Of a stretch of DNA of 11,306 bases, positions 1 through 4,208 are shown piece after piece. The notes below the pieces were generated by a model. The model saw only the letters and a list, made by a program, of their open reading frames with translations. It made no database searches and was not told where the DNA came from. The position numbers and the translations under genes are program-made. Position 1 is the stretch's first letter, and each line of letters begins with the position of its first letter. The DNA is from a virus: the UHGV virus genome UHGV-1326493; one strand, 5' to 3'.

Positions 1-362
1 GTATAAGGGACAGTTACTATGCTCAGGGTTTTTCATTGGCGTTGCTTGGCGAGCCTCTTTTTCAGAATAAGATGGAAGCTTGGATGCATGGCCCTGTTGT
101 CCCTGAGCTTTATCACCGTTATAAACAATATGGTAATGGTGCTATCCCTTCTCCAGAGTCTTTTGATGCTGAAAAATTCAGCGAAGAACAGTTAGAGCTA
201 TTAGAAGAAGTCTGGGATGTTTTTGGGCAATTTTCTGCCTGGAAACTGAGGAACATGACACACGAAGAGTCACCATGGAGATCAAACTATATTGAGGGTG
301 TTGGTGGTTCTGAAATTAGTTCTAAGGAGATGGCAGAGTACTTTGCAACTCGGATTAACTAA
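1..362 (+). CDS. Panacea (DUF4065)-domain protein, 5'-partial; gene starts upstream of the window
   Basis: The frame through nt 3-362 has no stop and reads ...IRDSYYAQGFSLALLGEPLFQNKMEAWMHGPVVPELYHRYKQYG..., matching the YYAQGW..LA..G.PLF...EAW..GPV.PELY signature I recall for DUF4065/Panacea (SocA/GepA-like) proteins. Stop TAA at 360-362. Track ORF 36..362 begins at a TTG internal to this frame. Confidence 0.7.
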   Translation, partial: IRDSYYAQGFSLALLGEPLFQNKMEAWMHGPVVPELYHRYKQYGNGAIPSPESFDAEKFSEEQLELLEEVWDVFGQFSAWKLRNMTHEESPWRSNYIEGVGGSEISSKEMAEYFATRIN

Positions 363-366
363 CGAG

Positions 367-786
367 ATGGCAAGAAAATCTAAAAGGATTATCCCCCCTG
401 CTGAATCTACAGGTAAGTTAAAGTTAGGGCCGCAGTCAGGGGGGAATTCAGATCAAAAGAAACCGAAATTTTCATTCTGTTACATCCAAAGCTCTCACTG
501 CATAACGAAATGCCAAAAAGATGAGAAAGCTGGCTTAGCTGATAAATTATACAGATTAAGTCAACTAACATGGGCAGATATTAAGCAGCAAGGTAGGCAT
601 AAGCTTGGATTTGAGAAGATTGCAAGGGGTGCAATTAAAGCAGGTATCCCCAGTCATATAACGGAAGACGTAGATCATTTCTTGGCTTTTAGATTTGATG
701 ATTTGAAAGCCATGGTTGGTTATCGTCTTGGATCGACATTTTTTGTTATATGGCTTGATAGAGAGTTCAACCTATACAAGCACTAA
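367..786 (+). CDS. hypothetical protein, 139 aa; coupled partner of the Panacea-domain gene, candidate toxin/effector
   Basis: First ATG (367) lies 4 nt after the upstream stop, with only a weak GAG upstream, so translational coupling is likely. Track ORF 292..786 starts at an overlapping TTG. Basic Pro/Gly-rich N-terminus (MARKSKRIIPPAESTGKLKLGPQSGG), then CYIQSSHCITKC, then a ~100-aa domain ending GYRLGSTFFVIWLDREFNLYKH. Stop TAA 784-786, followed directly by a terminator. Confidence 0.55.
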   Translation: MARKSKRIIPPAESTGKLKLGPQSGGNSDQKKPKFSFCYIQSSHCITKCQKDEKAGLADKLYRLSQLTWADIKQQGRHKLGFEKIARGAIKAGIPSHITEDVDHFLAFRFDDLKAMVGYRLGSTFFVIWLDREFNLYKH

Positions 787-790
787 TAAA

Positions 791-814
791 ACCCACCATC
801 AGGTGGGTTTTTTG
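791..814 (+). terminator. intrinsic terminator for the rightward two-gene unit
   Basis: ACCCACC (791-797) / loop ATCA / GGTGGGT (802-808) followed by a T-run through 813, directly after the stop at 784-786. The hairpin also encodes the last codons of mnt (KKPT) on the other strand. Confidence 0.6.
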
Positions 815-1050
815 TACAAATCCTTCAGCGTATCAAACACCATCTTCTTAACAAGTTCGGACTGCTCATCAGCGATGCGTTCCGCATCGTCTCGATAGCC
901 TGAAATTTTGGATTGCCTTGATACAGCATCAGTCACTATCTGAACTAATTCTGAATTAATAGAGCGGCCATTGGATTTGGCTCGCTGTTTTAGTTTTTCC
1001 TTTAATTCGTAAGGTAGCCGCAGATTAAATTGCGGGTCATCTCTTCCCAT
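799..1050 (-). CDS. mnt: Mnt-type ribbon-helix-helix repressor (P22 immI family), 83 aa
   Basis: MGRDDPQFNLRLPYELKEKLKQRAKSNGRSINSELVQIV...GYRDDAERIADEQSELVKKMVFDTLKDLYKKPT matches P22 Mnt as I recall it (ARDDPHFNFRMPMEVREKLKFRAEANGRSMNSELLQIV...DAERLADEQSELVKKMVFDTLKDLYKK). ATG is plus 'cat' at 1048-1050; AAGCGAGG upstream. Confidence 0.9.
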   Translation of the reverse strand: MGRDDPQFNLRLPYELKEKLKQRAKSNGRSINSELVQIVTDAVSRQSKISGYRDDAERIADEQSELVKKMVFDTLKDLYKKPT

Positions 1051-1113
1051 TCTTGATGCCTCGCTTTTGTGAGTGGATCGGCATCTTATTATTTGCTGGT
1101 TGCATCCTCAATA

Positions 1114-1128
1114 AGACCACTGTGGTCT
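1114..1128. promoter_or_regulatory. perfect 15-bp palindrome AGACCACTGTGGTCT, candidate Mnt operator next to a possible mnt promoter
   Basis: Perfect dyad 64-78 bp upstream of the mnt start codon. On the minus strand it is followed by TTGAGG (plus 1106-1111), a 16-nt spacer and TAAGAT (plus 1084-1089), which read as -35/-10 elements. Promoter assignment is by eye only. Confidence 0.4.
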
Positions 1129-1475
1129 CTTTATTTGATTAATAATGCATCACTGCGGCCACGCTGCAGCGATTCCTTGTATCTGGAGCAAATTAAATGA
1201 CAGATATTATAAATAGGAATTGTTATTTAATAATATTTGAAAATGAAAATCATGGACGATAGGAATAAAAGTAGTACTTGTTATTTTTAAGTGACGCATT
1301 AAACGCATAAAGCATATGTCTGTTGATCAAGATTCTTGCTTGTTGTAAAATAATTGTTTTGTTCATGTTGCATAGTTTTAAAGTGAATAGAAGATTATTT
1401 TTCAAAACAATTGCATCTTTGTCTGCAGTCATTCCGTTTTCTTCAATATCTAAATTTTCAAACAGGATGACTAAT

Positions 1476-4208
1476 ATGCCTGATATAACTCCAAATGTTG
1501 TAATTGGGATGCCTTCTCAACTCTTCACTATGGCTCGTTCTTTTAAAGCCGTAGCTAATGGCAAAATTTATATCGGTAAAATTGACACTGACCCTGTAAA
1601 TCCTGAAAACCAGATTCAGGTTTATGTAGAGAATGAAGATGGTTCTCACGTTCCTGTTTCGCAACCAATCGTTATCAATGCTGCTGGATATCCTGTATAT
1701 AACGGACAGATTGCTAAATTCGTTACTGTGAAAGGACACTCTATGGCTGTGTACGATGCTTATGGTACGCAGCAGTTCTATTTTCCGAATGTGCTGAAGT
1801 ATGACCCGGATCAGTTACGGCAGCAATTAGAAGATCCTGATGGTGCTAAAAAATACCCTGAATTACAGATTGCACGATGGCGGGATGATAAAGACGTTCG
1901 CGGGTGGGGGGCGGATGACTCTGGGAATAGAGATTCAACACAGGCTTTTCTTGACGCCGCATCTAGCGCAGGAAATAGTGGTTTGGTTCATGTGCCTTCT
2001 GGTGAGTTTATAGTTGATGCATCGAAAATAGATATTTCACGCTTCTCCGGTGATGGTGTTCTAATCAGTAATGGTGTTCGCATTTCTGTTAATCCGCCGA
2101 TGCAAAGTTTCTCCATTGGACAAAGAAAACTTGCGACCCTGAATTTTGGTGATGATATCAATGCGCCAACTATATATGCGAATGCACAAAATGCATTGCA
2201 GGGAATAGCTTGTGTAAGGCATGAAGGTATTGAGAAGGTTTTTATCACTCAACAGGTTGGAGGTTCTAACTGGGGAACGGACACCCTCACAAGGATCAGT
2301 GAGTGGCACTATACAAGCGATGGTTCGACCCTTTCTGTTGTGACATTTACAGAGCCATTGCCTCTTGGTCACGGTTCAGATCTTTCTGCCACAATAGAGA
2401 ACGGTGAACTATATCTGTTTACAACAACAATTGCTGAGACTGGTTCCTCTCTAGGAGGGAAGGGGTATTCAAAGACAAAATGGAAAGGGGCATCAACATC
2501 TGCTGAAGATATAACTCATTACCGAGTATTTGGTGAGCCGGGTGATAATAATCTGATTAACCTTGCGCAGCGGGCAAGTATTTGTGTATCTAATGATGGG
2601 CGATATGTCATATTAATTGCGACATCAAACGCTGGGACTGGCCGCTTTTTATACGTATATGATCGCAAAGAAGTGGAATCTTCTTCTAACCCAATGAAAG
2701 TTAGACCGATTAATGGTCCTGTTCCACTTGTCCGTGGTAAAGGTCAGTATGGTGCAACGCTTCAGGGTATTACATCAGATAGCAGATATATTTACACAAT
2801 TTGGGGTGGCGTTCCTGCAAGATGCGTAAGGACAGTCCAGATTTATGATATGGGTGGTACGCTAATACGTTCGTTTCCTGTATCACTTGCCGCATCACTT
2901 TATACAGAGACTCAGTTAAATGGTTCTGACTCTAAAATCGGAGTTCCGGTTAGCTTTGAGCCTGAAGGGCTGGCAATAAGAGGTGATGAACTTGTCTGTG
3001 GTGCTATGGATGTATGGAAAAGCGCAGGGGATGTTGTAAGCCATCGTGGTAAAAATTGGGTAAGTACTGTTACTGGTGATAACAAGGGAAATCTTCCGAC
3101 AAACAGGTCTTATTGGTTAAAAACATCGCTTGCAGCGACAAATGGTGAATGGGATTCAGGTGCAACATATAAATCAGGCGATTATACTCGCAGAAATAAG
3201 CATCTGTTTGGAGTAGCAAACCTGTCTGATATTCTTGGCAACCATCCAGTGCATGGCGCAGAATCCGATCCGTATACCGGAACCGCGTATCAATATTATG
3301 CTGGAACTGATATCGCCTTTAACCGTGAGCACGGTTCATTTACTATTGCGATATTTGACGAAGCCATTGGAGAGTATACCAAATCCCTCGAGTTGAATTA
3401 TGGAAATAACCTTAACCTGTTTGATACAGATTACGGCCATGACAATAATTCATGGGTAAGTACGAAAGCAGTATTCGACTCAAACTTTCGAGGTATGCAG
3501 TTCCGTTCTAAAGATGGCAATACTGCGGGTGGTGCTTATATTGATATCCATGCTGCTGATTGTCCATCTGCGGCTGGTGAGTTGATACTTGCCTCTACAG
3601 ATGGAGGTGTCGTCAGACTTAAGCAGGGGAATGTAACAGTATTTTCTGCGACTAAAGATACTACATCGACATGGGCGACGACGACATTAAGGCCAACAAC
3701 TGATAACCAGGTATCACTTGGAAGGTCCGTTAACCGCTTTTCTCAGGTCTACGCAGGGACTGCAACTATAAATACATCTGATGCAACAGAGAAAACGGAA
3801 GTCAGAACTCTTTCCGATAAAGAGCAGGCGGTTGGGTTAGCTCTTGTTGATGAAATTGGTTTTTATCAATGGCTTGATAGTGTAAAAAATAAGGGAGCTG
3901 ATGCCAGACTTCATGCCGGACTTACGGTGCAACGGGCAATGGAAATATTCAGAGAGAATGGACTTGATCCATTTAAATACGGAGCGATCTGCTATGACAG
4001 ATGGGATGCATATACAGATACAGATCCTGCTGTTTATGATGATGAAGGTAACCTTGTTCGTGAGGCTATAACTATTACGCATGAAGCAGGAGAACGCTAT
4101 GCATTCAGAAACGATGAATTACAGTATCTAATGATTGCTGCATTAGGTATACGTCAGAAAAATATTATAAAGAGGATTGAAGAACTGGAAAATAAGTTAA
4201 AAAATTAA
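1476..4208 (+). CDS. tailspike protein: P22-type head-binding N-terminal domain, distinct receptor-binding body, C-terminal intramolecular-chaperone-like domain
   Basis: N-terminus [59 protein letters not shown]...[10 protein letters not shown]...NVLKYDPDQ parallels P22 gp9 (MTDITANVVV...[38 protein letters not shown]...). Start chosen at ATG 1476, with AGGA 8 nt upstream and alignment to gp9 Met1; ATG 1467 is an alternative. The track start at 1323 is a coincidental in-frame extension through AT-rich leader. Stop TAA 4206-4208. Confidence 0.9.

Follow-up and report, generated by a model that had tools for sequence, protein, structure and literature searches.

What does a phage repressor gene regulate when the genes that its best-known homologue controls are not there? 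In P22, Mnt is the repressor of the ant gene and is expressed from the prophage (Villafane et al., 2008; PMC2629481). The question is raised by an 11,306-nucleotide stretch of UHGV virus genome UHGV-1326493 (here referred to as the window), part of a P22-like (Lederbergvirus) phage, in which an intact mnt gene (799–1050, minus strand) stands beside the tailspike gene (1476–4208, plus strand) with neither arc nor ant. Comparison of this locus with its relatives indicates that it is probably a working, self-contained Mnt repressor-operator unit of the type found in phages L and ST64T, and that its most likely task is to set the level of Mnt itself.

The mnt gene of the window encodes 83 amino acids, starting MGRDDPQFNLRLPY, with 73.5% identity to P22 Mnt across all 83 residues. 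Both domains of the repressor are present: an N-terminal ribbon-helix-helix (RHH) DNA-binding domain of the Arc type (Pfam Arc PF03869, E 3.3e-21, residues 3–50; PDB 1mnt, E 1.3e-32) and a C-terminal tetramerisation domain (Pfam Repressor_Mnt PF11423, E 1.4e-18, residues 53–80; PDB 1qey, E 3e-12). The PDB entry 9pio, which contains an ‘Arc family’ chain, was dropped because Arc serves there as a substrate in a ClpXP study. Several RefSeq records (NC_002371, NC_014900, NC_011802 and others) call mnt a ‘partition protein ATPase’, a wrong annotation for an 83-amino-acid RHH repressor. The N-terminal strand of the protein reads GRDDPQFNLR in the window and ARDDPHFNFR in P22; residue 6, His in P22, is Gln here, as a preliminary description of this DNA had pointed out. 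Arg2, His6, Asn8 and Arg10 of Mnt are reportedly the base-contacting residues, according to work of Knight and Sauer from 1989 and 1992, and of this set the window protein keeps Arg2, Asn8 and Arg10 and has Gln in place of His6. Since position 6 is a determinant of specificity and not of fold, Gln6 would mark a specificity class and not an exclusion from the Mnt family.

Searches with P22 Arc and Ant (tblastn) recovered neither gene in the 11.3-kb window, the sole Arc match being mnt itself, and no antirepressor family was detected by Pfam or PHROGs among its other open reading frames (ORFs). Compared with the P22 immI region (mnt-arc-ant-sar), the window thus lacks P_ant, arc, ant, sar and the arc operator, in addition to having Gln for His6. 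What it shares with P22 is the full-length homology of Mnt with both domains and a 17-bp dyad one base from the −35 element of the mnt promoter (P_mnt). The preliminary description was therefore right to call mnt an orphan, but this arrangement is no novelty, having been published as the mnt-only ‘ant moron’ of phages L, ST64T and ST104 (PMC2629481; PMC8022706). The name ‘ant moron’ was given to the variable region before the tailspike by Villafane et al. (2008), and in ST64T, ST104 and Para1 that region holds only mnt and one gene of unknown function (PMC2629481). In the window, likewise, no immI gene other than mnt is present, and mnt lies immediately before the tailspike gene and is transcribed away from it. 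The same pairing of mnt and tailspike without arc or ant is annotated in Gally, vB_EcoP-720R6, ST160, SE1, JEP4 and L; the gene order in Gally and 720R6 is injection protein, two small genes, mnt and tailspike, and L is arranged likewise. In L, ST64T and ST104, mnt stands alone, flanked by the ejection-protein genes on one side and the tailspike on the other, and arc, ant and sar are all absent. The gene 16 homologue lies outside the window, and the placement of our locus downstream of the ejection genes is read from these relatives. The unit composed of mnt, the operator and the boundary sequence described below (at least 80% of 799–1200) was found in 112 of 5,426 complete E. coli genomes, and in the best-matching E. 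coli chromosome the prophage is a degraded, IS1-disrupted remnant. The locus therefore belongs to an already described and common mnt-only class.

Within this class, the likeness to phage L extends to the details. The Mnt of L also starts MGRDDPQFNLRLPY and carries the strand GRDDPQFNLR, its operator, AAGACCAC-C-GTGGTCTT, is of the same type, and its predicted promoter layout is the same. The differences are that the right half-site ends in TC in the window and in TT in L, that the E. coli allele of the window has a P22-like C-terminal half whereas that of L is divergent, and that an AT-rich insertion of 279 bp precedes the tailspike in the window, where the neighbouring moron genes are also different.

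The site at which Mnt would act is indicated by a dyad upstream of mnt. The sequence AGACCACTGTGGTCT at 1114–1128 is a perfect 7+1+7 palindrome and forms the core of a 17-mer, AAGACCAC-T-GTGGTCTC (1113–1129). It is the single copy in the window even when two mismatches are allowed, with 0.01 copies expected by chance. The position of the dyad is homologous to that of the annotated P22 mnt operator, O_mnt (ctcaatAGGTCCACGGTGGACCT in P22, ctcaatAAGACCACTGTGGTCTC in the window); the annotated operator itself is ctcaatAGGTCCACGGTGGACCTgtattg, and the same place relative to mnt is occupied here by ctcaatAAGACCACTGTGGTCTCtttatttg. Between the half-site AGGTCCAC of P22 and AAGACCAC of the window there are two changes, G2 to A and T4 to A, such that the inner CCAC-N-GTGG is kept and the outer part goes from GGT to AGA. 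A P22-type O_mnt was not found in the window, and the arc operator (O_arc) had no match there with up to three mismatches.

Conservation of the dyad was read from an alignment of 34 unique intergenic regions. In relatives with Gln6, singletons are the only departures from the sequence of the 12 (6+6) core positions of the operator, whereas all four bases occur at similar frequency at its centre and the 3′ flank varies greatly. Arms that are fixed in sequence around a free centre base argue for a protein-binding site and not for a hairpin. The same pattern bears on the idea that the dyad is an intrinsic terminator of rightward transcripts instead of a protein site. A pattern scan does list 1114–1128, followed by CTTTATTTGA, as terminator-like; however, the stem is only 6 bp long with three G-C pairs, the Salmonella subtype (GTGGTCTTAATGACGC) keeps the dyad without a T-rich tail, and the arms are fixed in sequence and not merely in their pairing, so that we consider a terminator at this position barely credible. 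The comparative evidence strongly supports the dyad at 1113–1129 as the Mnt operator. A candidate operator unlike P22 O_mnt had been proposed at this place in the preliminary description, and both its homologous position and its co-variation with residue 6 (see below) speak for that proposal. The accompanying statement that it was the only strong dyad nearby has to be withdrawn, as a terminator at 788–811 and a conserved hairpin at 1153–1169 are also present.

If residue 6 and the altered half-site belong together, they should be found together in other phages. Our comparison set consisted of 88 loci of two Mnt types, taken from IMG/VR and GenBank and including the window. All 70 Gln6 loci carry the operator AAGACCAC-N-GTGGTC(T/G)(C/T) or a one-base variant of it (six singleton loci), and in all 70 mnt adjoins the tailspike, with arc and ant not present. 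All 13 His6 loci with arc-ant beside mnt carry AGGTCCAC-N-GTGGACC(T/C), the final base being T in 12 and C in one. In the remaining five His6 loci, the upstream region is of another kind, and a P22-type operator is absent from the vicinity. Residue 6 and operator type co-vary perfectly across the 70 Gln6 and 13 His6 loci. Gln side chains commonly read adenine, which makes the pairing of a His-to-Gln change with a G-to-A change chemically sensible. The strand PQFNLR of the window Mnt, with the inward-facing residues Gln, Asn and Arg, is identical to that of P22 Arc (Gln9, Asn11 and Arg13 in Arc), and the two proteins share the RHH fold. Arc differs in having no Mnt C-terminal tetramerisation domain and a different operator, and the N-terminal arm of the window Mnt, GRDD with Arg2, stays Mnt-like. 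The joint change of residue and operator echoes the Arc/Mnt hybrid work that Knight and Sauer in 1989 and Raumann et al. in 1995 are said to have carried out. Judged by this co-variation, Gln6 Mnt and its operator constitute a distinct specificity class with an Arc-identical strand; an incomplete literature search found no publication on this natural Gln6/operator pair.

Further Mnt types were seen at the homologous place. Type 3 Mnt (SKYDEAQFHLR; JEP4, IME10) has the operator CATACCGAAACGGTACG (TACCG-AAA-CGGTA), which is unrelated to that of the window, and its contact residues are Gln, His and Arg. Like the window mnt, type 3 mnt is an orphan beside the tailspike in nearly all of its loci (L215–L294, L005, L009), with the same layout of operator, A, −35, 17 bp and −10, and JEP4 also has the AT-rich insertion. 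The type 3 unit (at least 80% of its length) was found in 66 complete E. coli genomes. Proteus phage Brookers encodes a Gln6 Mnt (62% identical), again an orphan beside the tailspike, and one half-site of its operator keeps GTGGTCTT. In the CUS-3-type loci (L094, which is CUS-3, 477–1520; L075; L076), a His6 Mnt is encoded in tandem with a second RHH gene (MSDRKYKNPQVNLR) and with ant, and no P22-type, Gln6-type or type 3 operator was found inside the 5-kb locus.

Whether such a pair is still in use can be judged from its pattern of substitution. Relative to ST160, the ratio of non-synonymous to synonymous substitution rates (dN/dS) of mnt is 0.16 overall and 0.11 in the DNA-binding half. Relative to phage L, 48.5 of 54 synonymous sites differ, which is saturated, and residues 1–40 are almost unchanged. 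These values indicate that mnt is under purifying selection and, taken together with the near-invariant operator core and its free centre base, they argue for a working repressor-operator pair and not a decaying relic. The opposite view, that mnt and the dyad were left over from a deleted immI region and have no present function, has been listed as a possibility for phage L (Zaworski et al., 2020; PMC8022706), and degraded ant or arc genes do occur in HK620 and Scho1 (PMC2629481). It appears very improbable for the present locus. Hardly any locus has a broken ORF, dN/dS is about 0.1–0.2, and the DNA-binding domain has stayed the same even where synonymous divergence is saturated. Escherichia, Salmonella and, in part, Proteus phages have the operator core and the promoter hexamers in common, and the full unit is present in the 112 complete E. 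coli genomes mentioned above.

The alleles of mnt are mosaic. Compared with P22, the last 60 nucleotides of the window gene are 97% identical and its 5′ half 55–70%. In phage L, the upstream region and the first 26 coding nucleotides match the ST160 type and the remainder of the gene is highly divergent. A shared upstream region and shared first 26 nucleotides amid otherwise divergent alleles suggest that operator, promoter and recognition strand travel as one recombination block.

The promoter in question, P_mnt, is predicted on the minus strand with a −35 element TTGAGG (1106–1111), at the same offset as TTGAGA in P22, a 17-bp spacer, and a −10 element TAAGAT (1083–1088), at the same offset as the annotated P22 −10 TATCAT. 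It is followed by a Shine-Dalgarno sequence for mnt, GAGG (1059–1062, minus strand), 8 nucleotides before the ATG and conserved among the 34 unique intergenic regions. The predicted −35 and −10 elements are TTGTGG and TATGAT in the Salmonella subtype, and TTGTTG and TACGAT in the type 3 class. On the mnt strand, the three specificity types have a common layout: a 17-bp operator, one A, TTGnnn, a 17-bp spacer and TAnnAT. The spacing from operator to −35 is fixed at 1 bp, and the operator centre is predicted to lie near −45 of P_mnt. On the other strand, P22 has the strong rightward promoter P_ant, the start of which O_mnt covers, and its arc operator overlaps P_ant and P_mnt. The P_ant hexamers are not conserved in the window (TGCATC for TATATT and CGGCAT for TTGACA), and no rightward promoter near the operator passes the promoter scan or is conserved there. 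With the P_ant-arc-ant unit absent and no rightward promoter in its place, P_mnt is left as the sole fixed partner of the operator, and Mnt would most likely set its own level. The fixed 1-bp spacing fits autoregulation. The operator thus seems to be tied to P_mnt and not to the tailspike, and autoregulation is a plausible role and the best-supported one, the candidate effect being of either sign.

We propose that Mnt is expressed from this weak leftward promoter, would form a tetramer through its C-terminal domain, and would bind the 17-bp dyad AAGACCAC-N-GTGGTCT(C/T), one base upstream of the −35 element, as position homology and co-variation suggest. The Gln6 strand PQFNLR would read the half-site that departs from AGGTCCAC at G2 to A and T4 to A, with the inner CCAC-N-GTGG and the residues Arg2, Asn8 and Arg10 retained. 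As a secondary and unproven output, the bound tetramer might also stand as a final obstacle in the way of late-operon transcription toward the tailspike.

Several points weigh against a self-contained, autoregulatory unit. The predicted P_mnt hexamers are weak (8/12) and fall just under the promoter-scan cut-off. Vershon et al. reportedly described in 1987 that P22 Mnt bound with this geometry leaves P_mnt active, any stimulation being indirect via P_ant, which is missing here. A repressor that targets only its own promoter has no obvious selective value, and an unseen output probably exists. Furthermore, for the phage L homologue of mnt, Zaworski et al. (2020) allow ‘another function or a remnant’ (PMC8022706).

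One conceivable output is the supply of tailspike. Mnt bound at 1113–1129 could act as a roadblock on rightward transcription into the tailspike gene, or could interfere with it via convergent transcription from P_mnt, and so tune tailspike dosage or silence the gene in the lysogen. Gating of late read-through has already been proposed for P22-like phages (PMC2629481). The position of mnt directly upstream of the tailspike in 70/70 Gln6 loci and nearly all type 3 loci would agree with such a gate, as would the rightward moron genes (36–786), which point toward the operator region. However, there is no conserved rightward promoter at or near the operator, the P_ant hexamers being lost, and the preliminary description, which had Mnt gating rightward transcription into the tailspike, went too far in that form: with no local promoter, a gate could act only on transcripts that read through from the late operon or from the moron genes upstream. 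In addition, operator and tailspike start are spaced differently in different phages. As estimated from sequence, intergenic lengths and operator offsets, they are ~76 bp apart in the window, counted to a relic of the tailspike start, and ~65 bp apart where the intergenic region is 136 bp or 133 bp long, and the real start in the window is another 279 bp downstream of the relic. Late transcription in P22-like phages is antiterminated (gp23/Q-type) and is not expected to be stopped by a bound repressor. We therefore regard a tailspike gate as rather unlikely. Since Gln6 and type 3 mnt genes of Escherichia, Salmonella and Proteus phages are almost always orphans by the tailspike, the primary role of Mnt may nevertheless be independent of ant, for example in setting the late or read-through supply to the tailspike, with the control of ant in P22 a derived add-on; we put this forward tentatively, as an idea of rather low probability.

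Another output to be weighed is immunity in trans, with prophage Mnt repressing a cognate operator elsewhere, for example at a host promoter or at ant in a superinfecting phage or in one resident in the same cell. The role of P22 Mnt as a prophage-expressed repressor of ant (PMC2629481) provides a precedent, and specificity classes, as in immunity repressors, would suit competition between phages. Against this, the complete genomes of Gally and L contain no second copy of the operator at up to three mismatches, and ant is found in 0/70 Gln6 loci. A pattern scan of IMG/VR for the Gln6-type operator gave at least 120 matches. Among the matches listed, 47 were within 200 bp of a Gln6-type mnt, one was on a P22-like contig truncated at its end, and the other 72 were on contigs without an Mnt or tailspike match; one of these 72 contigs holds a weak ant-like match 2.7 kb from the operator pattern. 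No operator upstream of an ant gene was found among the matches listed. Action in trans is therefore improbable in our judgement, and autoregulation of mnt from its own operator remains the preferred reading.

The preliminary description had put an AT-rich gap of about 420 bp between mnt and the tailspike. The length is close to the 425 bp that separate mnt from the tailspike ATG (1476), but only ~265 bp of it (~1210–1475) are AT-rich: the part from 1051 to 1197 has a GC content of 43% and is the ordinary intergenic DNA that over 100 relatives have between mnt and tailspike. Next to the operator, this part includes a conserved ‘boundary sequence’ (1146–1196, plus strand) that aligns with P22, ST160, Gally and JEP4 and is annotated as bsq1 in CUS-3. 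The ancestral ribosome site of the tailspike, GGAG (1186–1189, plus strand), is inside it, and just upstream of that site is a 7-bp hairpin (1153–1159/1163–1169, plus strand). Pairing in the hairpin amounts to 95% over 32 variants; two of its pairs have changed on both sides (C-G to U-A, and A-U to G-C or G-U), and the hairpin is absent from a subtype with an 11-bp deletion. It may serve in the processing or translation of mRNA, or act at the DNA level as a recombination site.

Directly after the boundary sequence is the relic tailspike start (1197–1262, plus strand). Its first part, ATGACAGATATTA (1197–1209), is by alignment the true P22-type tailspike start in Gally, ST160 and P22, and in the window it opens a 21-codon ORF (MTDIINRNCYLIIFENENHGR). 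The AT-rich insertion (~1210–1475, plus strand; 27% GC) follows and supplies a new ribosome site, AGGA (1464–1467). This insertion is missing from Gally, ST160 and P22; JEP4 is the only GenBank phage in which it was found, and 20 complete E. coli genomes contain it. Wherever it occurs, the tailspike has one particular head-binding allele; the receptor-binding domains that accompany it are of at least five different kinds, and the accompanying Mnt is of several types (Gln6, type 3 and, at locus L089, the His6 type).

The insertion itself has no conserved ORF and no Rfam match, and an Rfam search over 700–1600 gave only terminator-like matches below threshold. A 60-amino-acid ORF on its minus strand is broken by a 5-bp indel in relatives. 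Folding of the insertion gave z = −2.3 for the plus strand, partly from the boundary hairpin, and z = 0 for the minus strand, and a promoter-like TTGATC-17-TAAAAT at 1323–1351 does not exceed what DNA of this AT content would be expected to contain. An open frame at 1383–1475 (plus strand) is continuous with the tailspike and looks like a twin-arginine signal, and the JEP4 tailspike is annotated from the ATG there; this frame is probably a by-product of the AT-rich DNA.

The point of insertion has been used more than once, and different phages have three kinds of insertion there. Just after the first four tailspike codons (ATGACAGAYATTA), the window and JEP4 have the 279-bp element with 27% GC, Kapi1 (locus L093, 1540–2075) has an HNH endonuclease gene, and locus L076 has an HNH endonuclease gene or similar sequence. 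In every case a relic start stays behind, and a new ribosome site and a new ATG come with the insert. In Kapi1, as in the window, the inserted DNA begins directly after ATGACAGAYATTA(C), with the relic start left behind and the ribosome site and tailspike ATG newly supplied. The Kapi1 insert is a gene for a 166-amino-acid HNH protein, whereas that of the window is without an ORF. A decayed HNH endonuclease gene of the Kapi1 kind was considered as the origin of the window insertion and rejected, there being no protein or DNA similarity.

On its other side, mnt is bounded by a bidirectional intrinsic terminator (788–811, both strands), a 10/10 complementary inverted repeat of the form AAAACCCACC-atca-GGTGGGTTTT that overlaps the mnt stop codon and terminates both mnt and the rightward genes upstream. 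The homologous site carries a terminator annotation in epsilon34 and L. These rightward genes are the 3′ part of a SocA/Panacea-domain gene (to 362, plus strand; Pfam E 5.5e-18), truncated at the start of the window, and a gene for a 139-amino-acid protein of unknown function (367–786, plus strand; phrog_8366), related to the epsilon34 gene 15 family, which carries the RefSeq label ‘transthyretin-like domain’ protein. The two moron genes (window 1–786) may be a toxin-antitoxin or defence pair.

The tailspike on the right of the locus (Pfam Head_binding, E 2e-65; Peptidase_S74, E 2e-7) has an N-terminus 72% identical to that of P22 gp9. It is built of a P22-type head-binding domain, a receptor-binding part and, at its end, an endosialidase-type C-terminal intramolecular chaperone domain, and it also matches, below threshold, the end of the endosialidase catalytic-domain family. 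Beyond the tailspike, the window continues with integrase, excisionase and early-left genes.

For phage biology, the immediate consequence is mostly housekeeping, in that the locus can be filed with the mnt-only morons of L and ST64T. Selection on mnt and conservation of its operator argue that orphan mnt genes are functional, a point left open by the phage L genome paper. If orphan Mnt were found to control tailspike supply, the textbook picture, in which Mnt serves solely to regulate an antirepressor, would change. The specificity classes also constitute a natural experiment in RHH recognition, with His6 and AGGTCCAC, Gln6 and AAGACCAC, and Gln-His-Arg and TACCG combined on one scaffold with identical promoter geometry, and the block of operator, promoter and recognition strand offers a natural His6/Gln6 swap with which the rules of ribbon-helix-helix recognition may be tested.

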